NCBI GenBank assembly: GCA_043750125.1 | Contig: JAYVCD010000112.1 | Span: forward strand, 1-47,618 | Direction: 5' to 3' | DNA length: 47,618 bases | Source: Archangiaceae bacterium | Lineage (GTDB): Bacteria > Myxococcota > Myxococcia > Myxococcales > Myxococcaceae | Shown here: positions 16,316-47,618 of the stretch, in pieces | Position numbering within the stretch: the stretch's first letter is position 1 | How the letters are laid out: each line of letters starts with the position of its first letter | Notes under the pieces: generated by a model | What the model saw: the letters and a program-made list of their open reading frames with translations, nothing else | Database searches by the model: none | What the model was told of the DNA's origin: nothing | Program-made: the position numbers and the translations under genes

Positions 16316-16905
16316 ATCGCAGCTCGAGCATTCGGCGTGGCAGCGCGTTGATGACGTCGGTGTTGCTCATCTCGGTGATGCTGGTGGTCACGGCGGGGGT
16401 CCTCTACTTCGCAGGGCAGGAGCGTCGCCGTTCGATTCAGCAGTCGCGAACCATTCCCCGAAACTATTGCGTCGAGACGGGCCTTCAAATCGCGCGCACC
16501 TATTACGGCGCCAACTACGCGAGCTGGAACACCTTCCTGGCCGCCCCCACCCAGTACAACCCGGTGGCTTCGGCCTGCAACCTGGTTCCCGCGATACCGA
16601 CCGCTTCCACCTTGCCGGCCGCGACCCTGGTGGACCTCGATGGCGATGGAGCCAACGACGTCTACATCTACATTCGCGACAATTTTGATGAGCATCCGCC
16701 GGCGGTGGCCGATTGCGCCCGCGACAACGACCTGCAGGTTCTGGTCGGAGCGGTGTGCATCTCGCGAACGCTGGCTCCGCGCCGCGAGGACGGAAGCGTG
16801 AATCCGATTCTGCAGACCACCGAGGGAATCCTTCAGTATTCCCCTCCGAACAACAACTACGCGCAGGGGCGCGGCTCTGCGCTGGGAAACGCCAACACCA
16901 ACTAA
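16312..16905 (+). CDS. pilX: Type IV minor pilin, PilX-like
   Basis: RG|SALMTSVLL hydrophobic helix lacking Glu+5 (PilX/GspK hallmark); ATGA overlap. Confidence 0.72.
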   Translation: MNRSSSIRRGSALMTSVLLISVMLVVTAGVLYFAGQERRRSIQQSRTIPRNYCVETGLQIARTYYGANYASWNTFLAAPTQYNPVASACNLVPAIPTASTLPAATLVDLDGDGANDVYIYIRDNFDEHPPAVADCARDNDLQVLVGAVCISRTLAPRREDGSVNPILQTTEGILQYSPPNNNYAQGRGSALGNANTN

Positions 16906-16936
16906 AGCTTCCCCCCGATGTGGTTTGTTCCGCGCG

Positions 16937-24595: not shown

Positions 24596-25602
24596 TCTTC
24601 AGCACACTGCTCACGCTGGCCTTGAGTCAGTGTGGGCCGTACACCCGGACCCGGGTCATCGATGGCGATCCCCACTCGCACTGTCTGTACTGGCGCGAGA
24701 ACAGCCTGATTGAATGGCACATCAATGATCAAGGCAACCCTGAGAATGCGGGCGATGCCGGGTTTGTGGCCGTCGAAAGGGCACTCGCGACCTGGCAGAC
24801 CGAGCTGAGCGCATGCGGGTCGCTGGGGTTGCAGGTGGGCCCGCGCACGAGCTCTCGCCTGGCGGAATTCAACAAGACGTCGCCCTCCAATCAGAACGTC
24901 GTGCTGTGGCGCTTTCAGAATTGCGCCCAGGTCGTCAACGCAAACCACCCCTGCTGGATCCAGGGGCAATGCGGAAACCAGTTCGATTGCTGGCAACACA
25001 GCTCAGGCGCGCTGGCGATCACCACCACCAGCTTCGAGCCCACCACCGGTCGAATTCTCGACTCGGACATCGAGCTCAACGTCCCAGGCTTTCTGTTCAC
25101 CACGGTCGATTACCCGGTGTGCGTCAGCCCGAACTTCAACGTCAGTTGTGTCGCCACCGACATTCAGAACGCGCTCACCCACGAGTTTGGTCATTCGCTC
25201 GGGCTGGCCCACAACTGTCAGCCTGCTTCGACCCTGAGTGCGGCGACTGCGCCCGGTGAGCTGAGCAAGCGGTCGCTGGACCTCGGCAGCAGGCAAGCCG
25301 TTTGCGACATCTACCCCAGGGGCCAACCCTCGCTCGATTGTGGAACGGACGGAGGAACAGGCGGTGGAGCCGGCGGCGGAAGTGGGGGTGGAGTCGGAGG
25401 TGGCAGCGGTGGTGGCAGCGGCGGAGTCGGTGGTGGCAGCGGTGGTGGCAGCGGTGGAGGGGGCAGTGCACCGGTCAACCGGGGGTGCGGCTGCAACAGC
25501 GGTCCCGCCGGGTGGCTTGCAATCGTTCTACTCGCCCGCGTCCGGGGGCCACGCCAGCGACGCTCAGTTCAGACCGACGCTGTGAGCCTGCTGCCTGTCT
25601 GA
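24592..25602 (+). CDS. Matrixin-like zinc metalloprotease with Gly-rich stalk and MYXO-CTERM-like tail (336 aa)
   Basis: ALAITTTSF, ILDSDIELN, DIQNALTHEFGHSLGLAH (HExxHxxGxxH); GCGC + hydrophobic + basic tail; ATGA overlap. Confidence 0.87.
   Translation: MIFSTLLTLALSQCGPYTRTRVIDGDPHSHCLYWRENSLIEWHINDQGNPENAGDAGFVAVERALATWQTELSACGSLGLQVGPRTSSRLAEFNKTSPSNQNVVLWRFQNCAQVVNANHPCWIQGQCGNQFDCWQHSSGALAITTTSFEPTTGRILDSDIELNVPGFLFTTVDYPVCVSPNFNVSCVATDIQNALTHEFGHSLGLAHNCQPASTLSAATAPGELSKRSLDLGSRQAVCDIYPRGQPSLDCGTDGGTGGGAGGGSGGGVGGGSGGGSGGVGGGSGGGSGGGGSAPVNRGCGCNSGPAGWLAIVLLARVRGPRQRRSVQTDAVSLLPV
25351..25467 (+). repeat. Low-complexity coding repeat for a (GGGS)n stalk
   Basis: Repeated GGTGGCAGC / GGAGTCGG units. 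Confidence 0.8.
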
Positions 25603-34800: not shown

Positions 34801-36400
34801 CACCGGCAGTCTGCAGGCCCAGCTTTCCGTGAAGGGCACCGCCGCCGCGCCCAGAGGTTCGGTGCGGGGCTCGTTGCAGAATCTGAAAGTCGGCAGCGTG
34901 GCCCTCGGGCAGGCGAACCTCAGCTGGGACTACGAAGCGCACAAGCACGTCTTTTCCACGGACCTGGTCAGCGCGGGGAATCTGAACGCGCAAGGCGAGC
35001 TCGAGCTCGATGTCTCGGTTCCGGCGATTCGCAAGGGGCTGCAGCTCGCCACCGCTCCGCTGAAAGCCACGGTTCATTCGTCGAACTTCGACGTCGGATT
35101 CTTCTCGGGGATCCACCCGATGCTCCGGGTGCTGGGGGGCCTGCTCAAGCTGGACGCGAAGGTGGATGGGCAGTTGGCCAGCCCCGGTTTCGAGGGGACC
35201 ATCGACTGGACCCGGGGACGCCTGGGGCTCGCCGGCTTCGGCGACTACCGCGACATTCACCTGCTGCTCGATGGCAACAACGCGGGCTACACCCTTCAAG
35301 AGCTGACCGCGAGGTCCGGCGGCGGCAACATCGAGCTGGTCGGAAAAGCGGTGCGCGAGAGCCCGGGCCATCTGAACTTGACGGGCCAGGGCTCGCTGTC
35401 GAAGTTTCCGATCATCACCGATGATCAGCTGCTCGCAGTCGCGACGGCGCGGCTTTCGCTTCAGGGCCAGGCGACCGGGCGAATGGTCGACATTCAGCAG
35501 CTGTCGATTCCCGAGGCGCACATCGAGCTGCCGGACGTGAAGCGCAAGGACCTGCAAGAGCTCGAACGGCCTGCGGACATCGTGTTGGTGCGCAACGGCA
35601 TTCCGGTGAAGAAGAGGAAGAAGAAGCCCGACGCGGCGGCGGTGCAGGAGTCGCTGGAAGCGCCGCGAACCTTCCGGGTGACGGTCGATGCGCCCCGAAA
35701 CCTCTGGGTGAAGAGCTCGGACGTGAACCTCGAGCTGGGACTCAGCGACAAGTTTCGAATCGAATACACCGACCGGGTGCTGATCTACGGCGAGGCCAAT
35801 GTGATGCGCGGTCGGGTCGACGTGCTCGGGCGCCGCTTCGACATGCAAAAAAATTCTCAGGTGCGCTTCAACGGAATCGCCAACCAGCCCTATCTCAACA
35901 TCAGTGCGATCCACGTCAATGAGCGCGAGAACGTGACGGTGTACGTGAACGTCGTCGGGAAAGGAAAAGATGCGTCGTTGAAGCTCAGCAGCCAGCCGGT
36001 GATTCCCGATTCAGAGCTGTTGATCTTGATCGCCACCGGCCGACGCACTCTGAAGCGTGGAGGCGGCAGCTCGATTTCAGGCGCCGACGCCGCCAGCGTG
36101 CTCGGCTCATTGGCGGCCTCGCAGCTGAAGACCCTGGTGGCCAAGCGGCTGCCGCTCGATGTGCTGTCGATCGAGTCGGGGGAAGCGGGGATCACCGACG
36201 CGCGATTGGAAGCAGGGGTGTACTTGTCGGACCGGGCGTACATCGGCTACCAGTTGAACCTGGGGGCAGATCGCAGCCGGGGCCAGAACTCGAATTCGCT
36301 CAAGCTCGAGTACCAGCTGTCGAAGTCGTGGAGCTTCGAGGCCTCGGCAGGAGACGCGCCGGCGGTCGGGGCCGAGCTGCTGTGGAGTCGGGACTTCTAG
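31865..36400 (+). CDS. tamB: Translocation/assembly module TamB (AsmA-like, C-terminal DUF490-like region)
   Basis: N-terminal TM anchor, long beta-rich body, C-terminal GRRF, P.LNISA, LSSQP, LEAGVYLSDR, LEYQL; 1511 aa. Confidence 0.88.
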   Translation: MTPRRKKILIWVAAGLLLLLLLIPTVAWLYLTSDTGSELIRDRVLGMVNADLQGKLEAKSLRTRGGLIVIDGLKLFTPEGELVVEIEHAELDPRLLALAKGRIVLWSLKVDKPRFYLKSDERGLNLNRAIDSKIQALPGVKKETKLYVDIGKVAIDEGYFDFAFGQDDYTVQQIHIEGKATISLPTLSLLGDLHLGGHVTAPIVDVLNIDVAATTDKPGDVRMDLNARTSDSHVKGQLSLDPVKLVIAESVASPITLRGFVPDFKIKVPISTQGTASPAAIDVTAQAGSARIAAKASFPKGGLLEAVELHAEGIDLAELLEGGRHSHLSGDLKGKLNNVGLETLDGAVKGQARWDEEGKVLASADIDVTASGGQIEVKQLEAKVPGATVSVKGRGNSKTLAINGSLEVTNLHSVAQAISEFTGSEVLPLSGQGSLRLATAGPLLHPALSVQGGFKQLGYDTVGVQDFKINAQLADVMRPLEAQAQLSAARLAMGETVLEGLSAEMSSRGRVLTAKLSTRGLATLAMTVAVEGTLDTDNRGLVLSALTVDYPKQQWTLEGPAHVGWTAEGDVEAQPVALQAGAQRVVLEGSLKASQLLASAQLQQLDLSQLPHSLIPASLGLGGFVNAKATVQGPTARVQTQVELAWHTGTLKGLSGITLVGRALLADSRVEGALTADTSLGQATSDFSFPLGRKAGKPQPVTLRLSTSALELSGAAMAFGGQLPVDGAVSLSLEVEGTLDHPRPNIQIESPNLRVCEGPCAPNGKVLADVTRVLFDRVVFSLLGDAENHPELLLAVNAFGGLSQLKLKIPFTFTQLLDAYLPAAPRRGPTPTAKGINWLLTPMELGLEASGIDLLKVGPVLQLSDPLKGTMHIAARATGNWLHPDLESTVGVVGFQGEGKQPLEVSTSVTTNREESRVKLTVLRVTRPVLVLNGRMGGPLERVRNEAELMETDLSIDASLGPVAMADLFLPVEDEAAAPTGSLQAQLSVKGTAAAPRGSVRGSLQNLKVGSVALGQANLSWDYEAHKHVFSTDLVSAGNLNAQGELELDVSVPAIRKGLQLATAPLKATVHSSNFDVGFFSGIHPMLRVLGGLLKLDAKVDGQLASPGFEGTIDWTRGRLGLAGFGDYRDIHLLLDGNNAGYTLQELTARSGGGNIELVGKAVRESPGHLNLTGQGSLSKFPIITDDQLLAVATARLSLQGQATGRMVDIQQLSIPEAHIELPDVKRKDLQELERPADIVLVRNGIPVKKRKKKPDAAAVQESLEAPRTFRVTVDAPRNLWVKSSDVNLELGLSDKFRIEYTDRVLIYGEANVMRGRVDVLGRRFDMQKNSQVRFNGIANQPYLNISAIHVNERENVTVYVNVVGKGKDASLKLSSQPVIPDSELLILIATGRRTLKRGGGSSISGADAASVLGSLAASQLKTLVAKRLPLDVLSIESGEAGITDARLEAGVYLSDRAYIGYQLNLGADRSRGQNSNSLKLEYQLSKSWSFEASAGDAPAVGAELLWSRDF

Positions 36401-36417
36401 CGCCGGCTCTTTTTTTT
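36385..36417 (+). terminator. Putative intrinsic terminator after tamB
   Basis: GAGTCGG-(11 nt)-CCGGCTC stem (one G-U pair) followed by T8, between convergent genes. Confidence 0.6.
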
Positions 36418-37805
36418 CAGCGTCGTTGTTCTGGGTCCACGTCGAGCAGCACTTCGAGGTCGACCCGCTCGTGGCCGACGCCGATCTCGACCCGCACCAA
36501 CTTGCTCTTGTAGCCATCCTTGCGAAGGCGCAGCTCGTAGCTTCCTGCGCTGAGCTGGGTCAGGGTGGTCGGGGTGCGCGGCTCGAGCCGTTCACCGTCC
36601 AGGTAGAGCACCGCATCGGGTGGAATCGAACGGACCGTCGCCTGGTAGGTCGGCGATTGCTCGGAAACGGCGGGCGCAAACGCAGACCGGTAGAGGAGCA
36701 ACGAGACGACCGCTCCCGCCGTCAAGCCGACCAGGGCCGCAGGAAGTTGCCACCGCCTCGAGAAGGAAACCCGCTTGTCGGTCTTGAGCGTCTCGTGGTC
36801 CAGCGGTTGGGATGCGAACAGCAAATCGTCCATCGGCTGAGTGCTGTTGCCCCTCAGCCGCGGCTGCAAGGTGGCCCGCGCCAACTTCGCTTGCGCCCGG
36901 TCGGGACCAAACAGCGAGGTCAGGTAGACGTCGAGCTGCGGGGTCCCACCGGAAGCGTCGCGCACCGCGTGGGCGAGGTCGAGGGCAGTCTGGTACCGGT
37001 CGCGCGGGTGCACCGCCAGCGACCGCTGCACGACGACTTCCAACGCCGCAGAAATCTCGGGACGAAGCGCGCGCAGCGACGGCAGGTCTCCGCGCAGCAG
37101 CTTGATCACCGTCTGGGCGGGCGCGGACCCCGCGAACAGCCGTCGTCCGGCGAGCAGCTCGAACAGACACACCCCCAGCGACCAGACGTCGGCGCGGCGA
37201 TCGACCGGCAACCCCCGAGACTGCTCGGGCCCCATGTAGCCTGCCTTCCCCTTGATCTCTCCGGCCAGGGTCTGGCGCAGCCTTTCCTCAGCGCGGGCAA
37301 TTCCGAAATCGAGCAGCTTCACCTGGCCCCGGTAGGTGACGAACAGATTCGCAGGCGAGACGTCGCGGTGAACGATGCCCAAAGGCTTCCCGTCGGTGCC
37401 CCGCATCTGGTGGGCGTAATGGAGCGCGTCGGCGGCCGCGGCGATGATCGCGCACGCCACGTCCACCGGTACCGGGCGCTGCTGGGTCTGCGCCCGCTCG
37501 AAGATCGACGCGGCGTCTTCGCCTGGCAGATATTCCATCGCCAGGTAGTAGTCGTCGTCCTGCTTTCCCAAATCGAAGATCTGCACGATTCCCGGGTGCT
37601 CGAGCCGGGCGGCGATGCGCGCTTCGTCGAGGAACATCTTCACGAACGAATCGTCAGCCGCGAGGTGAGGCAGCACGCGCTTGATGACGCACACCTTTTC
37701 GAAACCCCCATCGCCGGTGGCCTTCGCCAGAAAGAGCTCGGCCATTCCGCCCACTGCCAGGCGGTCGAGCAGCAGGTACCGGCCGAAGAGGAGAGGAGCG
37801 GGCAT
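36417..37805 (-). CDS. Membrane Ser/Thr protein kinase with C-terminal PEGA domain
   Basis: LAVGGMAELF, VIKR, DEARIA, HRDVSPAN, DFG, GK.GYM.PE, DVWSLG; TM helix; VRSIPPDAVLYLDG..TP..L.AG.Y.L...KDGY. Confidence 0.94.
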   Translation of the reverse strand: MPAPLLFGRYLLLDRLAVGGMAELFLAKATGDGGFEKVCVIKRVLPHLAADDSFVKMFLDEARIAARLEHPGIVQIFDLGKQDDDYYLAMEYLPGEDAASIFERAQTQQRPVPVDVACAIIAAAADALHYAHQMRGTDGKPLGIVHRDVSPANLFVTYRGQVKLLDFGIARAEERLRQTLAGEIKGKAGYMGPEQSRGLPVDRRADVWSLGVCLFELLAGRRLFAGSAPAQTVIKLLRGDLPSLRALRPEISAALEVVVQRSLAVHPRDRYQTALDLAHAVRDASGGTPQLDVYLTSLFGPDRAQAKLARATLQPRLRGNSTQPMDDLLFASQPLDHETLKTDKRVSFSRRWQLPAALVGLTAGAVVSLLLYRSAFAPAVSEQSPTYQATVRSIPPDAVLYLDGERLEPRTPTTLTQLSAGSYELRLRKDGYKSKLVRVEIGVGHERVDLEVLLDVDPEQRR

Positions 37806-37906
37806 CGGGCTTTCGCCCGAGAGTAATCCCAGAAATCAGCTCGGCCGTCACCGAAGCATTGCGCCCGGCCTTCGAGCCACCGGTATGCACCGCAAACCTC
37901 ACCGGC

Positions 37907-38167
37907 TCATAGGCTGACGGCCGAGCTCAGCACTTTCTTCCTGAAGTCCTCGCGCAGCCGCAGCAAGTTGGGTTGCTTCGACCGCTTTCGGGCCTGGACG
38001 TATTCGCCATCGGGGCGCATCAGCTCGCCGTCGATCGTCTCGTCGCTGAACGTGAACTCGGTGGTCTTCTTGTAGGTCACGTTGCCTTCGCCGACCTTCT
38101 TCGTCGGGTCCTGCGCGTGGCTGGTCGCGCCCAACAGCAGGGCCGCGAGAAGGAAGAATGATCGCAT
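37907..38167 (-). CDS. cglF: CglF/GltF-like small exported gliding protein
   Basis: GGAGG RBS, signal peptide, YKKTTEFTFSDETIDGELMRPDG and LLRLREDF pattern matching the CglF family as I recall it. Confidence 0.78.
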   Translation of the reverse strand: MRSFFLLAALLLGATSHAQDPTKKVGEGNVTYKKTTEFTFSDETIDGELMRPDGEYVQARKRSKQPNLLRLREDFRKKVLSSAVSL

Positions 38168-38194
38168 TGGGGTGAAACCTCCGCGGGCAGCTTC

Positions 38195-38210
38195 AGCAAG
38201 CGCCGAGCCG
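38195..38210 (-). promoter_or_regulatory. Putative sigma54 promoter for cglF (and possibly the kinase)
   Basis: Minus strand CGGCTCGGCGCTTGCT = GG-N10-GC with TTGCT, 28 nt before the ATG. Confidence 0.68.
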
Positions 38211-38332
38211 GCGGGGTTCTCCTCTGAAGGCTTCCCACGGGCGAGCCGGGGGAAGGGTCAGGCGCACTCCAGCTGCGGCCTCGAAGCGACAGGGTCGCGT
38301 TGCAAGCGACGCGATTTCCGATCATCCCGCGA

Positions 38333-38348
38333 GGGCACGAGAGTTGCT
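38333..38348 (+). promoter_or_regulatory. Putative sigma54 promoter for the pseudokinase / Cys-repeat lipoprotein genes
   Basis: GGGCACGAGAGTTGCT, one mismatch from the TGGCACG-N4-TTGCW consensus. Confidence 0.75.
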
Positions 38349-38360
38349 CGAGCGCCCTTC

Positions 38361-39212
38361 ATGACTGGTCCTCTTTCGTTCGCGTCTGCCCTCCCGCTGT
38401 CCGAGATTCGCTGCGCCGAGCTGACGGGGTACGACGTGCATCGAACTGTGGCGCGCAGCGACTCGGCCCTCGTCTACGTCGCGGGCAAGGTGGACCGCGC
38501 GGGAGAGAGCTTCGCCCTCAAGGTCTACGACTCGGTGTTGTGCGAGCAAACCTTCTCTTCGACCGCCGCGGCGCAAGAGCTCTGTGGCCCTTGCGTGGTG
38601 CCGCTGATCGAGTACGGCATCTGGCAAGGCAAGCCCGCGATGGTCAGCCCTTGGGTCGACGGGATCTCACTGCAAGATCTGCTCGGCGACCTGGACCAGC
38701 GCATTCCCATGGCCACCGCGCTTCGCATCGGCGGGCTGGTCTGCCGCGCCCTCGCTGAAGCCCACGCCAGCGACAGCGGGGCCCTCGTCCACGGGCGGGT
38801 CGAGCCGAGCCACGTTTTGTTGGGGCACGACGGCGCCGTTCAGCTCACCGGGTTCGGCGGGGGGCCGTCGCGATCGATCGTCTCGAGGCTCCAACCTTCC
38901 TATGTCTCGCCCGAGGTCGCGGCCGGGGAGCCGGCCGATGTGCTCTCTGACGTGTACTCGCTGGGCGCCGTCCTCTACGAGCTGACCACCGGTGAACGAC
39001 CGGTGGGTGCCCGCCCCGAGCGGCCCTCGAGCCTGAGCCCGGGGGTCGACGATCGTCTCGATGCGACGATCATCGCCTGCCTCGAGCGGGACCCTGGCGA
39101 GCGCCCCTTTTCGATTCGCGCCGTCGAGCACTGCATCGATGCGTGCTTCGAGGAGCTCGAGCTGATTCCCCATCCCGAGGAGCTGGCCGGCCTGGTGAGG
39201 CTCGCCCGATGA
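38361..39212 (+). CDS. Ser/Thr kinase-fold protein, predicted pseudokinase (about 283 aa, start uncertain)
   Basis: FALK, YVSPE and SDVYSLG..LYEL.TG are retained; HRD..N reads HGRVEPSH, DFG reads GFG, and the Gly loop reads ARSDSA. Confidence 0.82.
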   Translation: MTGPLSFASALPLSEIRCAELTGYDVHRTVARSDSALVYVAGKVDRAGESFALKVYDSVLCEQTFSSTAAAQELCGPCVVPLIEYGIWQGKPAMVSPWVDGISLQDLLGDLDQRIPMATALRIGGLVCRALAEAHASDSGALVHGRVEPSHVLLGHDGAVQLTGFGGGPSRSIVSRLQPSYVSPEVAAGEPADVLSDVYSLGAVLYELTTGERPVGARPERPSSLSPGVDDRLDATIIACLERDPGERPFSIRAVEHCIDACFEELELIPHPEELAGLVRLAR

Positions 39213-40951
39213 GGCCGGCGCTCGCACTGGTGCTGTTGCTTGCCGGCTGTGCCCGGGTGGGGGGGGAAGTCCCGGTCGCCCCCGCGGGCACCGGCGCCGC
39301 CGGCGCTGCCTGCGCCCGAAATCTGGAGTGCGCTTCAGGTCAATGCGCGGCGGCCCGATGTCTGGGCGGGGCCGGAGCCGATGCCCCGTGCACCGGTGGC
39401 AGCAGCTGCGGTTCCTCGCGCTGCGTCGGGGGAAAATGCACTGCCGGAGGTGAGGGCAATTCGCTGTGTCAGACCGCGCGCGAGTGCGCCTCGGGCGTCT
39501 GTTCCACCGGGCAGTGCACCGCCTCGATGGGGGGCACCGACGCGCCCAGCAGCAGCGGCAGTTGCCTGAGGGCGGTCGGGATTCCGTGCAGCGCCGCGGG
39601 GCAGTGCACCTCGAACCGTTGTCAGCACGGAAAATGCGAGTCGCCCCAGCCCACCGGCGGCGCTTGTACCCAGGACGCCCAGTGCGGCTCGGCCCGCTGC
39701 GAAGCCAACGCCTGCGCGGGGCCGTTGCCGTCGGGGTCTGCCTGCGCCCGGCGGGCCGATTGTTCCTCGCTGCTGTGCGTCAGCGGAACCTGCGAAGCGC
39801 TGCGGGCCAACGGCCAGTCGTGCGCGTCCGCCGGAGAGTGCGCTTCGTCGAGCTGCCACAACGGAGGCTGCATCGGCGCTGACACCCTGTGCACCAGCGG
39901 CGGCGACTGCAGCAGTGGCGCGTGCGGGTCCTCGGGAATCTGCGAGCCCCCCAAACCCGTGGGCAGCGCCTGCCAGGCCAACGCCCAGTGTGGCTCGAAG
40001 GAATGTGTCGCGGGCGCCTGCGGAGCCTCTTCGACCGCGACCCCCAGCGCCCCGGTCGAAAAGCCGCTGTGCGAATCGGGCCTGTGGGAAGGGCAAAAAT
40101 GCACCACCGGCGCCGACTGCACTTCGCGCCTGTGCACCAACGGAATCTGCGAAGGGCAGAAGAAGAATGGCTCGCCCTGCAGTGACGGCTATCAGTGCTC
40201 GTCTTTTCAATGCATCGAAGGAATCTGCGAAGTGCCGCGGGGCGCGGGCTCGCCCTGCACCAGTGATCGGCTCTGTTTTTCCAACTGGTGCCGCAGTGGA
40301 ATCTGCGAAGCCAAGCGCCCGAACAAGGCCGCCTGCACCAACGGCAACGAGTGCTCTTCGCGGCTGTGCTGGGACGGGCTGTGCGAAGCGTTCAAGCCCG
40401 GCGGGGCGGCGTGCATCAACCCGATTCAATGCGGCTCGCAACTGTGCACGGCGGGCATTTGCGAAGGTCCCCGGCCGGTGGGCAGCGGGTGTTCCCAGGC
40501 AGCGCAGTGCAGCAGCGCGCTCTGCAAGGCGGGGGTGTGCGAGGCGCAGCGACCGACCGGCTCGGTCTGCACCCAGAGCGTGGAATGCAGCTCGGCGCTC
40601 TGCGTGAACGGGGTTTGCGTCGGCGGTCAGCCGGGGGGCGCGACGTGCCTGGCCAACGCCGAGTGTGCCTCGAGCGTGTGTCGGCTCGGAGTGTGTGAAG
40701 CGGGCAAACCCACCGGCTCGGCCTGCACCCAGCCGGGCGACTGCGCCACAAGTTTGTGTACCAACGGAGTCTGCAGCGGCGCCCACCCCAACGGCTTCTC
40801 GTGCACCCAGTTTGATCAATGCATCTCGGGAATCTGTACCACCGGAATCTGCGAAGGGCCCGGCGGCAACGACACCGGCTCGGCGTGTACCCAGAATTCC
40901 GACTGCATCAACTACAGCTGCGTCGTAGGGGTCTGCGCCGGCCTGAACTGA
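39209..40951 (+). CDS. Cys-rich lipoprotein of 20 tandem ~26-aa repeats G-x2-C-x5-C-x4-C-x4-C (580 aa)
   Basis: Lipobox LAGC; ATGA overlap with the pseudokinase; repeats counted from the translation. Confidence 0.87.
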   Translation: MRPALALVLLLAGCARVGGEVPVAPAGTGAAGAACARNLECASGQCAAARCLGGAGADAPCTGGSSCGSSRCVGGKCTAGGEGNSLCQTARECASGVCSTGQCTASMGGTDAPSSSGSCLRAVGIPCSAAGQCTSNRCQHGKCESPQPTGGACTQDAQCGSARCEANACAGPLPSGSACARRADCSSLLCVSGTCEALRANGQSCASAGECASSSCHNGGCIGADTLCTSGGDCSSGACGSSGICEPPKPVGSACQANAQCGSKECVAGACGASSTATPSAPVEKPLCESGLWEGQKCTTGADCTSRLCTNGICEGQKKNGSPCSDGYQCSSFQCIEGICEVPRGAGSPCTSDRLCFSNWCRSGICEAKRPNKAACTNGNECSSRLCWDGLCEAFKPGGAACINPIQCGSQLCTAGICEGPRPVGSGCSQAAQCSSALCKAGVCEAQRPTGSVCTQSVECSSALCVNGVCVGGQPGGATCLANAECASSVCRLGVCEAGKPTGSACTQPGDCATSLCTNGVCSGAHPNGFSCTQFDQCISGICTTGICEGPGGNDTGSACTQNSDCINYSCVVGVCAGLN

Positions 40952-40968
40952 CCTTGCTTCAGAAGCCG

Positions 40969-41008
40969 CTGAAGGCCAGGGCCCCGCACGGGGCCTTTGG
41001 TGTTTCAG
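40969..41008 (+). terminator. Possible terminator or RNA hairpin after the Cys-repeat gene
   Basis: GGCCCC-GCAC-GGGGCC core followed by TTTGGTGTTT, outer arms CTGAA/TTCAG. Confidence 0.45.
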
Positions 41009-41113
41009 GGCCGCCTGCAGATCCGTGGACTTTGATCCGCACTGGAGTGCGCGTGCCTTGTCTCGAGGGGTTCGCAGCGGGACCCAAAGCCGCAGAGCGA
41101 CTGCGGAAATAAC

Positions 41114-41129
41114 GGGCACGGCGGACGCA
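41114..41129 (+). promoter_or_regulatory. Putative sigma54 promoter for the cglB-cglC-cglE-gltABC operon
   Basis: GGGCACGGCGGACGCA = GGCACG with exact GG-N10-GC spacing; weaker -12 element (AC instead of TT). Confidence 0.55.
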
Positions 41130-41141
41130 GTGGGTGGGTTC

Positions 41142-42269
41142 ATGTCCACCCGACTTCCGCTGCTCCTCGCCGTGCCCCTGCTGGCGCTGGCCTGTCAGGA
41201 ACACGAGTTCCAAACCCTCGAGCCGGTCACCTTCCGGCAGGTGAGCACCTTCAAGAAAGTGGTCGCCAAGCAGTTCAAGCCCAACATCATGTTGGCGGTC
41301 GACCGCTCGCAGTCGATGTCGTTTCCGATCGCGGCCGGCGGCGAATCGCGCTGGTTCCACCTCAAGGCCGCGATGACCGAATACCTCTCGACCCACGGGA
41401 CGGTCGCGCGGATGGGGTTGATGACGTTTCCCGTCGACGACGCCTGCGGCCCGGGGGCAGTCACGGTCCCGATGTTCGAGACCAACGACAACCCGGTCGA
41501 GCTGCAGAAGCACGCCGACGAAATCAACGCCAAGCTCCAGGCCACCCAGCCCGGCGGCGTGACCCCGACGATGGAAAGCCTGCGGGCGTTGGCGAACTAC
41601 GCTCCGATGCTCGGCGGCCGCGAGAGCATCGTGGTGCTCGCCACCGACGGGCTGCCCAACTGCAATCCGGGCAACCCCAACAGCTACGACGTGAACCCCG
41701 CTGCGTGCGATTGCACCTTCGCCTCGAACATGTGCGGGGGACAGTACAACCGCCTCTCGTGCCTGGACCGCAGCGGCACGGTCGCAGTGGTCAAGGAGCT
41801 GCTCGCGAAAGGCATCAAGACCGCCGTCGTCGCCTTCGGAGAAGACACCCTGTTCGGCGTCGGGCCGCAGGTGATGAACGCGATCGCCAGCGAAGGCGGC
41901 GCCCCGAGGACCTGCCCCCACGGAAACAACGCCGAGTGCGGCGCCAACAACGTCTGCGACAAGGCCACCAAGGTCTGCGAGATGCGCTTTTACGCTGCGA
42001 GCAATTCGCGCGAGCTCGCCGACGCGCTGGCCACCATCGGGTACGACCTGAGCAAGGGCGACGCGTGCGAGCAGACGCTGGAAGTCGTGCCGGCCGACGA
42101 GCGGTACTTGACGGTGCTGCTCAACGACCAGCCGCTGCCTCCGGGGCCCGACACCTGGACCTACGCCGCGGGCACGGTCACGTTTCATTCCATCCACTGT
42201 CAGAAGCTGGGCAGCTCGACGCCCGATGATCCGGTGCGCCTCGAGTTTCGCACCGTGGAGGTCCTGTGA
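41142..42269 (+). CDS. cglB: CglB-like vWA-domain Cys-rich gliding adhesin lipoprotein (375 aa)
   Basis: Lipobox ALAC then QEHEFQTLEP; KPNIMLAVDRSQSM (MIDAS DxSxS), GVTPT, LATDGLPNCN, SCLD, FY.A.N..ELA.AL. Confidence 0.82.
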   Translation: MSTRLPLLLAVPLLALACQEHEFQTLEPVTFRQVSTFKKVVAKQFKPNIMLAVDRSQSMSFPIAAGGESRWFHLKAAMTEYLSTHGTVARMGLMTFPVDDACGPGAVTVPMFETNDNPVELQKHADEINAKLQATQPGGVTPTMESLRALANYAPMLGGRESIVVLATDGLPNCNPGNPNSYDVNPAACDCTFASNMCGGQYNRLSCLDRSGTVAVVKELLAKGIKTAVVAFGEDTLFGVGPQVMNAIASEGGAPRTCPHGNNAECGANNVCDKATKVCEMRFYAASNSRELADALATIGYDLSKGDACEQTLEVVPADERYLTVLLNDQPLPPGPDTWTYAAGTVTFHSIHCQKLGSSTPDDPVRLEFRTVEVL

Positions 42270-42691
42270 TCCTCCGCGCCTGCCTCGTCGTCGTTCTGAC
42301 TCTCACTGCCTGTTCAGGAAGCACCGGGCTGGGTGACCCCTGCACCCTGGTGAAGGCAAACCCCGCCGGCGGAAAAGCGATTCCGATTCAGGAACGCGAG
42401 CTGCCGGTAGCGCGCGCCGACTACGTCACCTTCGCCTCTCCCAGCTGTGCCGAGGTCTGCGTGCGCGACGCGGATCAACCCCGCACCGGAAACAACGACG
42501 CGCTCGCCACCGGCTACTGCTCCTCGCCGTGCGCGGGCACCGGCGCTTCGTGTGGGGATCCCGCTTTTACCTGCCGTGCACTCCTGCTCGACGAGGCCAC
42601 TCTTGCTGCGCTCTGCTCTTCCGACGCCGTCCCCTGCCGCTCTTTCCCCAATGGTCCGAAGACGTTCTTCTGCGTTCAGGGAGCGCGCTGA
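42266..42691 (+). CDS. cglC: CglC/GltK-like lipoprotein
   Basis: Lipobox LTAC; G.PC.LVK, DYVTF...C...CVRD, GYCS.PC, TCRALLLD, FFC; GTGA overlap. Confidence 0.78.
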   Translation: MILRACLVVVLTLTACSGSTGLGDPCTLVKANPAGGKAIPIQERELPVARADYVTFASPSCAEVCVRDADQPRTGNNDALATGYCSSPCAGTGASCGDPAFTCRALLLDEATLAALCSSDAVPCRSFPNGPKTFFCVQGAR

Positions 42692-42692
42692 G

Positions 42693-43241
42693 ATGCGGCC
42701 CCTGGCGCTGGCGGTGTTGCTGTCGTGCTCGGCCTTCGCTGACGTGCCCGAGCCCCTGGTCGAGCGCGGCACCTACCTGGGCGTCGGGGTGGGCCCGCAC
42801 GGGTTCGTCAGTCCTCCCATCGCGCCGCAGCGGGTGATCGTCGGTTATGGGCTGAGCCTCGAAGCCCGCTACGCCCCGTGGGAAAGGCTGGCGTTCTCGG
42901 TGCTGATGATGAGCTCGGGGATGAAGGGCGGGGCCCAGGCGCAAGGCGACATTCTCGCGGTGACGCCTGCGTTCGCGGTGCGCCTGAACACCTTCGGCGT
43001 CATCGACCGCTTCGATGTGCGGCGGCTGTGGGTCTACCTGCGCGCTGGAGCCGGCTACACCCTGTTCTGGCCCCAGTCGGTGATGTCGCGCGGTGCGCCG
43101 GTCGTCTTCGCCAGCCTCGGCCTCGAGTACCGCACCCACCTTCGCCACTTCGCTCTCGGTCTCGAAGCCACTCCCATCTTCTACCCGACGCTCAATCTGT
43201 GGAGCTTCGCCGTCACTCCCAGCCTTCAGTTCGCTTTCTAA
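42693..43241 (+). CDS. cglE: CglE/GltH-like outer-membrane beta-barrel (182 aa)
   Basis: Signal peptide; VERG.Y, W.Y.RAGAGY, GLEY.T.LRHF..GLE, C-terminal P.LQFAF. Confidence 0.75.
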   Translation: MRPLALAVLLSCSAFADVPEPLVERGTYLGVGVGPHGFVSPPIAPQRVIVGYGLSLEARYAPWERLAFSVLMMSSGMKGGAQAQGDILAVTPAFAVRLNTFGVIDRFDVRRLWVYLRAGAGYTLFWPQSVMSRGAPVVFASLGLEYRTHLRHFALGLEATPIFYPTLNLWSFAVTPSLQFAF

Positions 43242-43253
43242 AAGGGGTCGTCC

Positions 43254-43934
43254 ATGCGCTCGATTTTCATCGCACTGCTTGTCGCCTCGACCGCGCTCGC
43301 CGCGGAAAACCCACCCTCACCCCTCGACCCGGCCCGGGAAGAAAAAGAAGGCGAGCCCGAGACGGTGGCCGATCGCATTCGCAGCATGCAGCCCAAAGCG
43401 ATCGTCAAGCGCGGTCGCTTCGCGGTGACGGCGTGGGGCAGCGCCTCGGTCAATGACCCCTTTCACACCAAGGTGGGGGGAACGCTGTCGCTCGCGTTTC
43501 ACATCGAGAACAGCCTCGCGGTCAGCCTGCGCGGTGGAATCGTTCGGGTGGTGAAGGACGACGACCTTCAAGTCGCGCGGCAGAACTTCCAGGTCGGCAT
43601 CGTGGCGTCCCAACCCAATTGGCTGGCGATGGGCGACATCGAGTGGACGCCGATTTACGGAAAGCTGCGGTTCAGCGATTCGATCGTTCACCTCGACGGC
43701 TACGTCGTCGGCGGCCTGGGAACCGTGGTCCACCGTTCTCCCGAGGTGGCCTTCGAAGCGGGAATCGGGCTGCGTTTCATCGCCACCCAATGGCTCGCAG
43801 TCAACCTCGCGTGGCTGAACACCTTCTACCTGGACAAGCCGGTCGGCAGCTCGACCACCCTGATTCAGAACCTGATGACCGCCAACCTCGGGGTCACGAT
43901 CTTCGTGCCCTTCTCGAACCGGAGCCCGCAATGA
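43254..43934 (+). CDS. gltA: GltA/GltB-family outer-membrane beta-barrel (closest to GltA as recalled)
   Basis: DRIRSMQ.K...KRGRF, SVNDPF, DIEWTPIYGK, HLDGY, GLRF, QNLM..NLG.TIF.P; the A versus B assignment is from memory. Confidence 0.7.
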   Translation: MRSIFIALLVASTALAAENPPSPLDPAREEKEGEPETVADRIRSMQPKAIVKRGRFAVTAWGSASVNDPFHTKVGGTLSLAFHIENSLAVSLRGGIVRVVKDDDLQVARQNFQVGIVASQPNWLAMGDIEWTPIYGKLRFSDSIVHLDGYVVGGLGTVVHRSPEVAFEAGIGLRFIATQWLAVNLAWLNTFYLDKPVGSSTTLIQNLMTANLGVTIFVPFSNRSPQ

Positions 43935-44683
43935 ACCGAATGCTCATGCTGTGGATCCTCGCTCTGGCGACCGGTGCCAGGGCTGACGAATCATCCGAGC
44001 CCCAAACCGCGCCGCCCGCGATTGATGCCGACCGGACCGGGCTGCTGAAGGCCCGCATTCCAGTGATCGCCGGGACCCGCTTCCTCAAGAATGACCGGCT
44101 CGAAATCACCCCCTCGGTCGCGCTCTCGTTTCGCGACGCGTTCTTCAAGAAGACCGTCGTCGGCCTCGAAGTCGGCTGGCACTTCAGCGACGCGTTGGCG
44201 TTGAGCGTGCGCGGCGCCTATTCCTTCTCGGCCCCGTCCGGAGCGATTCAGGTCTGCTCGGGCACCACCACTGGAGGATGCCAGAGCCCCGAGCGCGCCG
44301 AGCTCGCCGGCCACGCCCCCGGGGACCTCATCTTCCTCACCGGCGGCAGCCTCGAGTGGACCCCGCTGTACGGAAAGATTTCGGTGCTCGCCGAGACCTT
44401 CCGCAACTTCGAGCTCTTCGCCGACCTGGGAGGAACGCTGGTCGGCTACCGCGGAATCTCGGCCAACGCCGGCGGGGCGCTGGCCTTGACCGGCGGCGGC
44501 GAGCTCGGGCTGGGCGCGCGCTTCTTCTTCACCCGCTGGCTCGCGCTGCGGCTGGAAATCAAAGACCTCGTCTACCCCGAGCAGGTCGAGGTCGGCACGG
44601 TGAGCTCCCCGCGGGTGCGCCAGCAATTCTTCGGTCAGCTCGGACTTTCCATTTTTCTTCCCTCTTCCCGCTCGGACGGCTGA
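43931..44683 (+). CDS. gltB: GltA/GltB-family outer-membrane beta-barrel (closest to GltB as recalled; 250 aa)
   Basis: RI.V..G..FLK..RLEI.P, RDAFF.K, Cys-bridged loop, EWTPLYGKISVLAE, G.RFF, GLSIFLP; ATGA overlap. Confidence 0.7.
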   Translation: MNRMLMLWILALATGARADESSEPQTAPPAIDADRTGLLKARIPVIAGTRFLKNDRLEITPSVALSFRDAFFKKTVVGLEVGWHFSDALALSVRGAYSFSAPSGAIQVCSGTTTGGCQSPERAELAGHAPGDLIFLTGGSLEWTPLYGKISVLAETFRNFELFADLGGTLVGYRGISANAGGALALTGGGELGLGARFFFTRWLALRLEIKDLVYPEQVEVGTVSSPRVRQQFFGQLGLSIFLPSSRSDG

Positions 44684-44686
44684 CCC

Positions 44687-46171
44687 ATGACTTCCGCCCT
44701 CTTCCTTGCCTTGTCCCTGGCTGCCTCTCCCGCCGAGCTGTTCAAAGACGGCGACTACCCGCAGGCGGCGCTCGCCGCAGCCGAGCTGCAGCAAGACCTC
44801 GCTTCCGGGCTCGATGCGCAGCTGGTCCTCGGCAAATCGCTGTACCGGCTGGGTCTGCTCCACTCGTCGCTGGCCGTCTTCTCGAAGGTGCTCGTCAACG
44901 CGCCGCGCACGAAGCACGCGACCAAGGCGCTCGAGTGGATGCTCTTCATCAGCCGGAAGACGCCGAACAAGGACCTGGTCCTCGACGAGATTGCGCGCAA
45001 CGCAGGGTCCGAGCTGCCCGAGCGCTACCGCACTGAAATCCAGGTGCTGCTCGCGCGTCACCACTACGCGTACGGGCTCTCGTTGGACGAAGCGGGCCAC
45101 AACGCGGAAGGCGCCGCGAGCTTTGCCGAGGTGAAGCGGTTGGCGCGGCTGATTCCCCGCGGCGACCCGTTCTACGCCAGCGGCAAGTACCTCGAAGGGC
45201 TGACCGAGTTTCGGGACAACAAGGTGCCTGAGTCGGCGGCCGCGCTCAAAGAAGTGCTGCGCTCTACCGACGACACCGCCTTGCGAGAGCTGACCTTCAT
45301 GCAGCTGGGCCGCGCCGCCTACGGAGCCCGGCAAGAGCGTCACGCCGTCGCCTGGTACGGAAAGGTGCAGCGCGGGGGGCCGCAATGGTTGGACTCGTTG
45401 TTCGAATCATCGTGGGCCTCGTACCGAATGGGCAATGACGAGCAGGCGCTGGGAAACCTGGTCACCTTGTCCTCGCCGCACTTCAAGAACGAGTACTACC
45501 CGGAGGCCTTCATCATGCGGGGCGTCATCTACTTCGAAAATTGCCGCTACCCCGAAGCGCGCGCGGTGGTCGACGAGCTCACCCGGGTTTACCAGCCGGT
45601 CCTGAACAAGCTCGACGCGCTGCTGAAGACCAGCGCCGAAGGCGGGGACTTCTATGACCAGCTCGATGAGATGGGCGGGGCCTCTTCCTCGCCTACCGCC
45701 GTGACCGAGGACGTGAAGCGGCTGATCGGCTCGGTGAAGGAAGTCGAGGCCGAGCTCGACGCGATTTCGGGCACCGCGCCCGCGTTTTCCCAGTCGGGGC
45801 TGGCGCAGACCCTGGCAGAAGATTTGAAGCAGCGGCGGCTCGACCTGCGCAAGAAGGCAGGCACGCTCGCCCGGCGCTCGTTCGCCTCGCAGTCCGAAGA
45901 CTTGAAGCGCCTCTTCGTCGACGGGCTGCGCATCAAGTTCGACGTGAAGTCGCTCGAGAAGGACCTGCTCGAGGCGAAGCTCAACGGGAAGAACAAGGGC
46001 GCGAAGCTCGTCGACTACGACTTCCCGATGGAAGCAGGGGAAGACGAAGAATACTGGCCGCTCAACGACGAGTACTGGCGCGACGAGCTGGGTACCTACC
46101 TCTACACGCTGACCAAGGGCTGCGCCGAACACCGCACCAGCGTTCCGGTCGCGCAAAGGGCCTCGCGCTGA
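44687..46171 (+). CDS. gltC: GltC-like TPR periplasmic gliding protein
   Basis: GKSLYRLGL.HSSL..F, LEW..FISRK, W...LFESSWA, ALGNL.TL.SP.F, IY.ENCRY.E, C-terminal YWP...EYWRDELGTY.YTLTKGC. Confidence 0.85.
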   Translation: MTSALFLALSLAASPAELFKDGDYPQAALAAAELQQDLASGLDAQLVLGKSLYRLGLLHSSLAVFSKVLVNAPRTKHATKALEWMLFISRKTPNKDLVLDEIARNAGSELPERYRTEIQVLLARHHYAYGLSLDEAGHNAEGAASFAEVKRLARLIPRGDPFYASGKYLEGLTEFRDNKVPESAAALKEVLRSTDDTALRELTFMQLGRAAYGARQERHAVAWYGKVQRGGPQWLDSLFESSWASYRMGNDEQALGNLVTLSSPHFKNEYYPEAFIMRGVIYFENCRYPEARAVVDELTRVYQPVLNKLDALLKTSAEGGDFYDQLDEMGGASSSPTAVTEDVKRLIGSVKEVEAELDAISGTAPAFSQSGLAQTLAEDLKQRRLDLRKKAGTLARRSFASQSEDLKRLFVDGLRIKFDVKSLEKDLLEAKLNGKNKGAKLVDYDFPMEAGEDEEYWPLNDEYWRDELGTYLYTLTKGCAEHRTSVPVAQRASR

Positions 46172-46197
46172 GTCCTCTCAGTTATGGTGCCGGGGCT

Positions 46198-47511
46198 TTG
46201 ACGACCGACCGCCCCCTCACCGATGTTCTCGCTCCGTCTTCGGTTCAGCCGATGCGGTTGAAGTTGCAGATCGTCTCGGGTCCGGACTTCGGAAACGAAT
46301 TCGTCCTCGGTCCCGGGACCCATCGAATCGGGAAGGAAGAGGAAAACGACCTGGTGCTGCACGACAGCGCCGTCTCGCGCCTGCACCTCACCGCCCAGGT
46401 GTTGCCCTCGGGGGTGAGGTTCACCGACAACCAATCGACCAACGGGTCCTTCTGCGACGGAATGCGGTTCACCACCCTCGAGGTCGGGCCCCACGCCACC
46501 ATTCGCATCGGGAACACCGTGTTGCGCGTCGTCCCCACCGACATTCAGCGGCCGGCCCTTCCCCCTTCGAAGTCAGACCATTTCGGCAACCTGTCGGGCG
46601 AAAGCCTGGTGATGCGGCACTTGTTTGCGCTGCTCGAGCGGGTCGCTCCCACCGACATGAACGTCCTGTTGTTGGGCGAGACCGGCACCGGGAAGGACGT
46701 TTGCGCCCGCGCGATTCACGACCAGAGCCCCCGGGCGAAGGCACCGTTCGTGGTCTGCGACCTGGCTGCGATTTCAGCAGAGCTGGTCGAAGCCGAGCTT
46801 TTGGGCCACGTGAAGGGCGCCTTCACCGGAGCGTCCAGCGATCGCGCCGGCCCCTTCGAGCGCGCCAACCACGGGACCATCTTCCTCGACGAGCTGGGCG
46901 AGCTGCCGCTGGACCTGCAGCCCCGACTGCTGCGGGTGCTCGAGAGCCGCGAAGTCCAGCGGGTCGGGGGAACGTCTTCGGCGAAGGTCGATGTCCGGGT
47001 GATTGCCGCGACCCAGCGCGATCTGGGGCAGATGATGCGCGAGGGAAAGTTTCGCGAAGATCTCTACTTTCGGCTCGCGGTGACCACCGTTACCCTGCCC
47101 CCGTTGCGAGATCGCTGGGAAGACATTCCCCTGCTGATGCAGCAGATCGCCCAGAAGTCGGGCAAGCCCCTGGTCGAGTTTGCCCCCGAGACGCGCGCCT
47201 TGCTCTGTGACTACCGCTGGCCCGGAAACGTGCGAGAGCTGCGCAACGTGGTCGAGCGCGCCTTGAGCGTCGACGCGGTGCCGCAGGTTCCTGCCGAAAA
47301 TGACAGCGGGGTTCCGACCGAGGCCCGCGGCACCGGCTTCCATCAAGCCAAGGAACGGCTGGTGATGGCGTTCGAGCGGGACTTCGTCGCCACGCTGTTG
47401 AAGAAGTGCGATGGGAACGTCGCGCTGGCCGCTCGCACCGCCGGAATCGATCGCGCCTACCTGCACCGGCTGATCAAGAAGCAGCGCAAGGGCGAATCGC
47501 TGCCCGACTGA
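46198..47511 (+). CDS. FHA-domain sigma54-dependent enhancer-binding protein (FHA-AAA+-HTH); start is TTG 46198 or ATG 46252
   Basis: FHA: IGK, VSRLH, STNGS; AAA+: GETGTGKD, GHVKGAFTGA, LDELGE, FREDLYFRL, WPGNVRELRN; Fis-type HTH GNVALAAR.AGIDR. Confidence 0.94.
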   Translation: MTTDRPLTDVLAPSSVQPMRLKLQIVSGPDFGNEFVLGPGTHRIGKEEENDLVLHDSAVSRLHLTAQVLPSGVRFTDNQSTNGSFCDGMRFTTLEVGPHATIRIGNTVLRVVPTDIQRPALPPSKSDHFGNLSGESLVMRHLFALLERVAPTDMNVLLLGETGTGKDVCARAIHDQSPRAKAPFVVCDLAAISAELVEAELLGHVKGAFTGASSDRAGPFERANHGTIFLDELGELPLDLQPRLLRVLESREVQRVGGTSSAKVDVRVIAATQRDLGQMMREGKFREDLYFRLAVTTVTLPPLRDRWEDIPLLMQQIAQKSGKPLVEFAPETRALLCDYRWPGNVRELRNVVERALSVDAVPQVPAENDSGVPTEARGTGFHQAKERLVMAFERDFVATLLKKCDGNVALAARTAGIDRAYLHRLIKKQRKGESLPD

Positions 47512-47618
47512 CCCTCCGGCTAGCCCGACCTTCGCAGACTTCGGCGGTTGAGCGGGGTCAGCGATGGTGCTTTCACGAGGGAGGGCCTTGTGCGGGAAGA
47601 TCGCGCAATGGTAGTTGA

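Follow-up and report, generated by a model that had tools for sequence, protein, structure and literature searches.

Comparison with described systems

In Myxococcus xanthus, the genes for the outer-membrane (OM) platform of the Agl-Glt gliding machinery are split, with gltKBAC forming one group, gltF and gltH lying inside the gltD-J cluster and cglB standing alone (PMC9946355). In the model for this species GltA, GltB and GltH are barrels, GltK covers the outer face and exposes CglB, GltC lies beneath, and GltF places its C-terminal helix in a crevice of GltC while binding the TonB-like domain of GltG, beside GltD, with another strand; a GltABHK-CglB complex has been purified from E. coli (PMC11761067). 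The DNA analyzed here is the whole 47,618-nt contig C112 (GenBank JAYVCD010000112.1, hereafter the window) of GCA_043750125.1, the 6.17-Mb, 460-contig metagenome-assembled genome (MAG) of an Archangiaceae bacterium, estimated to be 89% complete. It carries a homologue of every component of the platform in a single block, additional to the canonical split set of the same genome. This cassette, a paralogous set of OM-platform genes, is real and intact, and it recurs, though rarely; there is good support for its structure and for its evolutionary distinctness, and we infer its function and regulation. Its content corresponds to the purified GltABHK-CglB complex together with the modelled GltC and GltF (PMC11761067), and its adhesin has a lipobox and an intact metal-ion-dependent adhesion site (MIDAS). 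It differs from the M. xanthus machinery in that its CglB is of reduced length and has no four-Cys insert, its GltC lacks about 120 N-terminal positions, and a Cys-repeat lipoprotein, kinases and an enhancer-binding protein (EBP) are attached to it. The platform genes appear to have been gathered into one cassette from a split arrangement.

Other duplicated Glt-type modules have been described. NfsA-C are homologues of GltA-C, and M. xanthus has further clusters, G3, G4, G5 and M2, none of which stands in for the glt genes, G4 and G5 being defined by gltD homologues (PMC3169522). Like the cassette, Nfs (NfsA-H) and G4/G5 are Glt-type modules duplicated within the same family, and they do not take the place of the motility genes (PMC3169522), but they carry GltD/E/G-type transducer genes and lack CglB, CglC and CglE equivalogs. 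These homologies and extra clusters (PMC3169522) would speak for identifying the cassette with the Nfs spore-coat machinery or with G4/G5, an identification that is nonetheless very improbable. GltA-C-like genes together with GltD/E/G/H-like genes mark an Nfs cluster, and no GltD/E/G homologue lies on C112; the cassette likewise has no homologue of gltD, by which G4 and G5 are defined (PMC3169522), and it has equivalogs of cglB, cglC, cglE and cglF. Furthermore, this genome and the two other cassette-bearing genomes described below (G224 and G225) each have a separate Nfs-like set, with a GltC-like protein at 219-226 bits and GltG-like and GltE-like genes nearby, whereas the cassette GltC proteins score 497-527 bits and are sister to canonical GltC rather than to the Nfs-like set. 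A match to a described paralogous Glt or Nfs cluster, which the first-pass annotation of this DNA had named as a way in which its proposal could fail, is therefore not what was found.

A third point of comparison is CglD, a β-integrin-like gliding adhesin with a von Willebrand factor A (VWA) domain and EGF-like repeats in a Cys-rich stalk, which assists CglB and whose gene is never clustered with gliding genes according to a preprint (bioRxiv 10.1101/2023.10.19.562135). CglD is a surface lipoprotein whose repeat stalk is rich in disulphides, and the Cys-repeat lipoprotein of the cassette could act as such a stalk for the VWA protein CglB2, but it lacks a VWA domain, matches DUF7107 rather than CglD, and is encoded by a gene that always adjoins the cassette cglB, unlike cglD as reported there. 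No description of a cglB-gltK-gltH-gltA-gltB-gltC block or of this CglB subtype was found in the main texts of the literature searched, in keeping with the statement of the first-pass annotation that it knew of none; supplementary synteny figures were outside the scope of this search, and those of Islam et al. 2023, covering 61 genomes, may show cglB synteny.

Organization of the cassette

The cassette follows tamA (29723-31864) and tamB (31865-36400) on C112, and its features are collected in Table 1. Family calls were made with Pfam and NCBIfam models carrying curated cut-offs and are written as bits/cut-off; CglB, CglC, CglE, CglF and GltC pass equivalog cut-offs, and the barrels were assigned by tree. 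The homologues of CglF, CglB, CglC, CglE, GltA, GltB and GltC that the first-pass annotation had read from the letters are all in place and the models support each call. Its kinase, Cys-repeat lipoprotein and FHA-domain EBP are borne out by Pfam domains, by the repeats and by the GAFTGA motif, and its pseudokinase call holds because HGR replaces HRD and GFG replaces DFG in the second kinase. The tight coupling it described from cglB to gltC, with gaps of at most 12 nt, was measured as -4 nt for cglB/cglC, +1 for cglC/cglE, +12 for cglE/gltA, -4 for gltA/gltB and +3 for gltB/gltC. The EBP gene follows gltC after 26 nt, and the pseudokinase and Cys-repeat lipoprotein genes overlap by 4 nt. All open reading frames (ORFs) of the block are open, its GC content and GC at third codon positions (GC3) are typical of the genome and of the rest of the contig, and C112 ends 107 nt past the EBP stop. 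No tRNA gene was detected in the window and no integrase was noticed among the called ORFs, so that tRNA and ORF inspection gives no evidence for a mobile element at the block.

Table 1. Features of the OM-platform cassette on C112 (scores as bits/cut-off where a cut-off is given)
Feature	Position	Strand	Evidence
Ser/Thr kinase with C-terminal PEGA	36417..37805	-	Pfam Pkinase 120.1 bits, PEGA 36.9 bits; HRD and DFG intact
cglF/gltF paralogue, 86 aa, signal peptide	37907..38167	-	NF033764 90.7/90 (marginal)
Candidate σ54 -24/-12 element facing cglF	38195..38210	-	CGGCTC-N5-TTGCT, 2 mismatches
Candidate σ54 -24/-12 element facing pseudokinase and Cys-lipoprotein genes	38333..38348	+	GGGCAC-N5-TTGCT, 1 mismatch
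Pseudokinase	38361..39212	+	Weak Pfam Pkinase, 41 bits; HGR for HRD, GFG for DFG
Cys-repeat lipoprotein	39209..40951	+	LLAGC lipobox; Pfam DUF7107 86.2 bits
Terminator-like GC hairpin with T-rich tail	40978..40997	+	Consensus match only; 27 nt past lipoprotein stop
Cassette-type cglB, VWA lipoprotein adhesin, 375 aa	41142..42269	+	NF033757 329.5/200
cglC/gltK lipoprotein paralogue	42266..42691	+	NF033754 89.9/60; lipobox LTAC
cglE/gltH β-barrel paralogue	42693..43241	+	NF033755 74.8/70 (marginal)
gltA paralogue, OMP_myx_plus barrel	43254..43934	+	TIGR04565 92.9/60
gltB paralogue, OMP_myx_plus barrel	43931..44683	+	TIGR04565 102.9/60
Short gltC paralogue, 494 aa	44687..46171	+	NF033756 526.9/450, profile positions 125-621
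FHA-domain σ54 EBP	46198..47511	+	Sigma54_activat 218.9, FHA 32.5, Yop-YscD_cpl 68.6 bits; AAA lid; GAFTGA

The cassette copies are overall 31-51% identical to the canonical copies of their own genome. In the cassette CglB (CglB2) the MIDAS residues D54, S56, S58, T141 and D169 are invariant relative to the canonical copies and the lipobox reads LALAC; the insert missing from it by alignment is a 19-residue segment of canonical CglB that carries the four Cys. CglF2 is 50.6% or, in a second comparison, 52% identical to the canonical copy on contig C184, and a core of the form FxDDxIxGxLxRPDGEYVxAR...NLIRxRxxF is common to CglF2, canonical CglF and the cassette CglF of a second genome (locus L039, below). 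The match of GltC2 covers profile positions 125-621 of 622, against 3-622 for canonical GltC. The Cys-repeat lipoprotein contains 83 Cys in 20 units of C-x5-7-C-x3-5-C-x4-5-C, mostly C-x5-C-x4-C-x4-C; in the protein atlas it carries Cys-rich family labels only, and its atlas model is poor (pLDDT 0.57).

Canonical copies in the same genome

The canonical machinery is encoded on other contigs of the same assembly. C28 carries a full-length canonical gltC (910.9 bits), two OMP_myx_plus barrels and a divergent cglC (122.9 bits), and C184 carries a partial gltD, gltE (541.5 bits), cglF (130.1), gltG (939.2), cglE (144.1) and gltJ (568.4), with a 4083-residue TPR protein occupying the gltI position. 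Two further cglB genes lie on C105 (418.8 bits) and C331 (425.6 bits). A distant VWA-barrel-barrel-GltC-like cluster on C256, whose GltC-like protein scores 221.6 bits and falls below the cut-off, is read with the GltE-like and GltG-like matches on C141 as a putative Nfs-like set. Because canonical gltKBAC, gltD-J, cglB and Nfs-like genes are thus present elsewhere, the cassette is an extra set, and the concern raised with the first-pass annotation, that these might be the only copies in the genome, does not apply.

The genome has a single canonical gltD-J set (C184/C302) besides the Nfs-like one, and the cassette has no motor of its own on this contig. The genome's own GltD (partial), GltE, GltG, GltI and GltJ gave no tblastn match on C112, and the MotA_ExbB and ExbD models, with six matches each in the genome, have none there, which agrees with the earlier reading that no AglRQS or GltD/E/G/I/J gene lies in the window. 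Two loci off C112 combine one MotA_ExbB with two ExbD genes, the arrangement expected of aglRQS or of exbB-exbD-exbD. The DNA just beyond 47618, where motor genes would have spoken against the first-pass proposal, is past the end of C112; the two syntenic loci described below, L038 and L039, have no such genes for about 6 kb downstream or for 5-10 kb upstream.

Each of the three GltA/B/C-type sets of the genome has a VWA gene beside it, which in the cassette is CglB. On C28 a VWA gene (L009, 11236-12690; PF00092 90.6 bits) adjoins the canonical cglC, and on C256 a MIDAS-adhesin-like or CglD-like VWA gene (L012, 1068-6002; NF052240 55.6 bits) lies upstream of the Nfs-like barrels. On C184 a 598-residue ORF of no clear family (L010, 5770-7566) lies between the canonical cglE/gltH and the giant TPR gene.

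Insertion site and integrity of the assembly

Blastn homology to the same-genus genomes stops at 36400-36408 in all four, and the PEGA kinase gene is the first after this synteny break. The block is absent downstream of tamB in each of them, where homology past tamB continues with genes located on C158 and C212 in the present genome. The best same-genus match of the EBP is 48-50% identical, compared with 73-77% for TamB in the four genomes. Judged from these comparisons, the EBP has no same-genus orthologue and the block is a lineage-specific insertion. The region past tamB is variable, as three of the four relatives have an approximately 950 bp gene resembling one on C158 (15111-16076) followed by a C212-like block; positions 1-1669 of C212 have no counterpart in the relatives and possibly represent the opposite side of the insertion.

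An insertion that begins at such a break could also be an error of assembly or binning in which the DNA of another organism was joined to tamB, and both the fragmented and incomplete state of the MAG and the end of the contig right after the block are compatible with this. Such a chimera is extremely improbable, however, since contigs of run X1 (possibly the source) bridge the tamB/kinase junction at 36331-36501 with no differing letters, as does a contig of X5, a 171-nt record from a second study. In addition, an 8761-nt X1 contig covers 38129-46889, and the GC and GC3 values of the block are those of the remainder of the contig. At 46664-47618, where the EBP gene encodes its AAA+ portion, summed contig depth climbs to 110-340 in each of the four runs and loose ends are numerous, a pattern consistent with cross-mapping among conserved σ54-activator genes that may explain the end of the contig.

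Recurrence in other genomes

The family survey covered 208 species genomes as classified by GTDB and used CglB as query, with E at most 1e-90, instead of GltC, for which an E-value cut does not discriminate since cassette copies score no better than canonical ones. Cassette-type CglB was found in three of the 208 species genomes, the present one included, and in three of 51 genera, at 61-62% identity; none of the four other same-genus genomes has it. A pattern scan of approximately 186,000 species genomes gave 74 cglB loci (best 80 of 325 relatives), at which neighbouring platform genes were sought with window and canonical queries (bits over 50) across 2.4-21 kb per locus. Among the 74 loci listed, the full core occurs in two only, L038 and L039, both in MAGs, one (L044, below) pairs a canonical cglC with a canonical cglB, and at 71 of the listed loci no other platform gene lies within the 2.4-21 kb examined.

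The order Cys-lipoprotein, cglB, cglC, cglE, gltA, gltB, gltC is common to the window, L038 and L039; a conserved order was among the findings that the first-pass annotation had named as support for its proposal. In L038 two Cys-repeat lipoprotein genes are followed by cglB (61% identical), cglC (52.5%), cglE (46%), gltA (48%), gltB (40%) and gltC (47%), each of these six core genes giving a single full-length alignment. L039 (G209/G225:C29) has a PEGA kinase on the opposite strand (44%), an FHA-EBP (58%), cglF and a 77-residue two-repeat Cys lipoprotein upstream of cglB (62%), cglC (50%), cglE (43%), gltA, gltB (42%) and gltC (47%). The pseudokinase was not found beside either cassette. On a 1.7-kb metagenome contig (L112), a cglB of 60% identity is immediately preceded by the final part of a Cys-repeat gene, so that a gene of the Cys-lipoprotein type lies directly upstream of cassette-type cglB in all four loci (window, L038, L039 and L112). 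L112 is the one cassette-type locus among the 79 distinct loci listed from the metagenome scan (best 80 of 260 relatives). The remaining 78 metagenome loci (L113-L190), from soil and sediment, encode VWA proteins 23-33% identical to CglB that were retrieved via the cassette-derived patterns DRS[QM]SM[SD]F or ATDGLPNC.

The two other cassette genomes also resemble the present one in having canonical copies, with canonical GltC at 967 and 945 bits in G224 and G225 and cassette GltC at 526 and 497 bits, and each also has one Nfs-like GltC and one canonical GltG. In a collection of 5.8 billion proteins, 14 further cassette-type CglB clusters are 59-89% identical and 288-379 residues long, and below 59% there is a gap, the next proteins being at 52% or less; GltC2 has one relative there, 78% identical. 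Matches to the CglB model exceed the cut-off in 22 of 151 genomes of the phylum, all within the family; those outside the family all fall below the cut-off and, wherever positions were compared, are not on GltC contigs. In a genome of the same genus, a canonical cglC lies directly upstream of a canonical cglB (L044, which is the same locus as L033, G002:C50; 631-2378 in L044). This cglC is 56% identical to the canonical cglC of the present genome, whose C105 locus has no such gene, and the pair implies that cglC/cglB adjacency arose more than once.

Phylogeny

The separateness of the cassette copies, also named as support in the first-pass annotation, is seen for four of the proteins. In the CglB tree (quick method, 105 rows), the four cassette rows form a starred clade with support 100 nested among the family CglBs, and the two canonical CglB proteins of the genome sit with the canonical copies of other MAGs. 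In the GltC tree (quick method), cassette GltC and protein P0002 fall within a starred five-row clade inside a starred ten-row clade of short GltC proteins (476-578 residues), which is sister to 39 canonical GltC rows. In the GltA/GltB tree (careful method, 14 rows, with one piece only of the L039 gltA), the barrels fall with GltA (98/98, starred) and GltB (98/99, starred), respectively, and the cassette GltA group (86/86) and cassette GltB group (88/91) are recovered, neither starred; cassette branches here are about twice the canonical length. The cassette CglC is 50-52.5% identical to other cassette copies against 38% to the canonical copy of its own genome, and the cassette CglE 43-46% against 31%. 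In many Myxococcaceae/Archangiaceae a second cglB lies about 1.2 kb upstream of the first (L053, L054, L055, L059, L062, L068, L071, L075, L079, L082 and L088), and these upstream copies form an 11-row starred clade of their own with support 100.

Candidate regulation

In FHA-type σ54 activators of myxobacteria that are paired with Ser/Thr kinases, the kinase is linked to the FHA domain of the activator. The cassette EBP contains an FHA domain and an AAA+ domain with GAFTGA, and thus shares with the FHA NtrC-like σ54 activators of myxobacteria the architecture FHA + AAA+ (GAFTGA) + helix-turn-helix as well as a membrane kinase encoded nearby; the promoter evidence here consists of motif matches, and the only promoter candidates are the two elements in Table 1. 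These face outward in the 193-nt spacer between cglF and the pseudokinase gene, where about 0.03 would be expected. Genome-wide, the σ54-like match rate is 0.143 per kb and matches with at most one mismatch number 83 in 6.17 Mb. The pattern is not enriched over the window as a whole (40 matches against 53.9 expected), and it is only the placement of the candidates in the spacer, not their window-wide frequency, that is suggestive. A further σ54-like element lies upstream of cglF in L039. The σ70 promoter scan gave no promoters, and terminator-like matches in the region number 13 against 9.1 expected. A GG-N10-GC site before cglB (41114-41129), read by eye, has three mismatches and was not counted. 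PADLOC matches of the kinase to PD-T4-6/mad6 and of the EBP to RtcR-like proteins were taken as domain-level similarity rather than as evidence of a defence system, given that both genes accompany the cassette more than once.

Possible function

The reading that we favour by a modest balance of probability is that the cassette would be an accessory copy of only the OM module of Agl-Glt, under separate regulation, whose products build an alternative adhesion platform and dock it on the housekeeping motor. The barrels GltA2, GltB2 and GltH2, the lipoprotein GltK2, whose counterpart exposes the adhesin in the published model, the VWA/MIDAS adhesin CglB2, the periplasmic TPR connector GltC2, the small linker GltF2 and the Cys-repeat lipoprotein encoded just upstream of cglB2 would be its parts. 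These products may assemble into a second OM platform displaying CglB2, in which the Cys-repeat lipoprotein perhaps acts beside the adhesin as its stalk or as a co-adhesin. Through GltC2 and GltF2 this platform would be attached to the one housekeeping GltD/G/J-AglRQS motor, and the cell would gain an alternative foot with another adhesive specificity, whose expression the membrane Ser/Thr kinase may control by way of the FHA domain of the σ54 activator. Since the genome has a single gltD-J set and CglF2 keeps the core of its family, we infer that docking on the housekeeping motor is favoured over a static complex. The stalk or co-adhesin role is a hypothesis suggested by the linkage of the lipoprotein gene to cglB in four of four loci, by the absence of the four-Cys insert from CglB2 and by the Cys-rich stalk of CglD (bioRxiv 10.1101/2023.10.19.562135).

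A more elaborate form of this proposal is possible, though doubtful. It would make the cassette a swappable foot, that is, a self-sufficient OM module with a two-part adhesin (CglB2 as integrin-like VWA head and the Cys-repeat lipoprotein as separate stalk) that competes with the housekeeping platform for the single Agl-GltDEGIJ motor and thereby switches substratum or prey specificity, is turned on via Ser/Thr kinase, FHA-EBP and σ54, and has spread patchily in Myxococcaceae by gene transfer.

Rather unlikely, but with evidence of its own, is that the cassette serves motor-independent surface display, in which an identical OM platform would present CglB2 and the Cys-repeat lipoprotein in a fixed position for attachment to prey, kin, particles or biofilm matrix, with no coupling to AglRQS/GltDEGIJ. 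Motor and transducer genes are absent in or beside all three cassettes over the flanks examined, which for L038 and L039 comprise about 6 kb downstream and 5-10 kb upstream; cglF, the modelled bridge to GltG/GltD, is missing from L038; the cassette GltC has a shortened N-terminus in each of the three genomes; and a VWA/MIDAS adhesin outside gliding is known in Bdellovibrio (PMC11003981). Against static display, GltC and GltF have no known role beyond linking the OM complex to the periplasmic transducer (PMC11761067), and both are present here, CglF2 with the motif of the canonical protein and GltC2 with a score above the GltC equivalog cut-off.

Several observations weigh against docking of a separately regulated platform on the housekeeping motor. 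With respect to regulation, the plus-strand σ54 candidate lies only about 13 nt before the pseudokinase ATG, a proximity that leaves either the true start or the promoter call uncertain; the motif scan found no σ54-like element directly upstream of cglB, and the terminator-like hairpin separates the lipoprotein gene from cglB. Kinase, EBP and cglF were not found within 10 kb of L038, so that the regulators and GltF2 are not universal parts, and the first-pass description of a cassette with its own regulators stands for the kinase and FHA-EBP in two of three genomes (the window and L039) and fails for L038. With respect to the proteins, the approximately 120 N-terminal profile positions are missing from GltC2 and equally from the cassette GltC of G224 and G225, and the CglE (74.8/70) and CglF (90.7/90) scores are barely above their cut-offs. 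With respect to the trees, several long branches are flagged for GltC, where long-branch attraction could inflate the clade; the cassette GltA, GltB and GltC are as distant from each other (38-48% identity) as from the canonical copies, and their branches are 2-4 times longer than canonical ones, which could mean relaxed constraint. Finally, cglB (at about 10135) and gltA (at about 12640) of L039 each lie in two frames, which may reflect pseudogenisation or an assembly indel error.

These last points bear on the further explanation that the cassette is a redundant duplicate drifting to loss with no distinct function, for which its rare and patchy occurrence (three of 208 species genomes), its long branches and the apparent frameshifts in L039 would count. 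Drift is nevertheless improbable. All 12 genes of the window block are intact, the six-gene core from cglB to gltC among them, and the core is full-length in L038; MIDAS residues and lipoboxes are retained, and gene order is held even though the copies share no more than 40-62% identity. The range of 59-100% identity covered by at least 15 CglB sequences implies that the cassette lineage has long persisted. The frame breaks of L039 may be indel errors, given that its record is a MAG contig with a 'tig' name.

The occurrence of the cassette, which is rare and known from MAGs only, indicates that the OM half of the myxobacterial focal-adhesion machine can form a genetically separable unit that can be duplicated, and possibly transferred, with its own adhesin. 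Its content independently matches GltABHK-CglB plus GltC and GltF and so lends comparative-genomic support to that parts list, and it nominates two new players, a Cys-repeat lipoprotein tied to a CglB subtype and a kinase/FHA-EBP pair as a possible switch. Should the second platform dock on the housekeeping motor, the cassette would offer a natural system in which to ask how one motor serves different adhesins.

Other genes in the window

Elsewhere in the window, a 1624-residue ORF without a family match, a 517-residue PilW-domain protein with an N-terminal methylation motif and a 197-residue ORF follow one another at 9675-16905 and may form a set for the minor pilins or the tip adhesin of a type IV pilus. 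A myxosortase-dependent phytase-like phosphatase is encoded at 16925-18265 (195.9 bits, below the cut-off), and a MYXO-CTERM metalloprotease of the MXAN_2677/2678 family at 24439-25602 (310.9/250).

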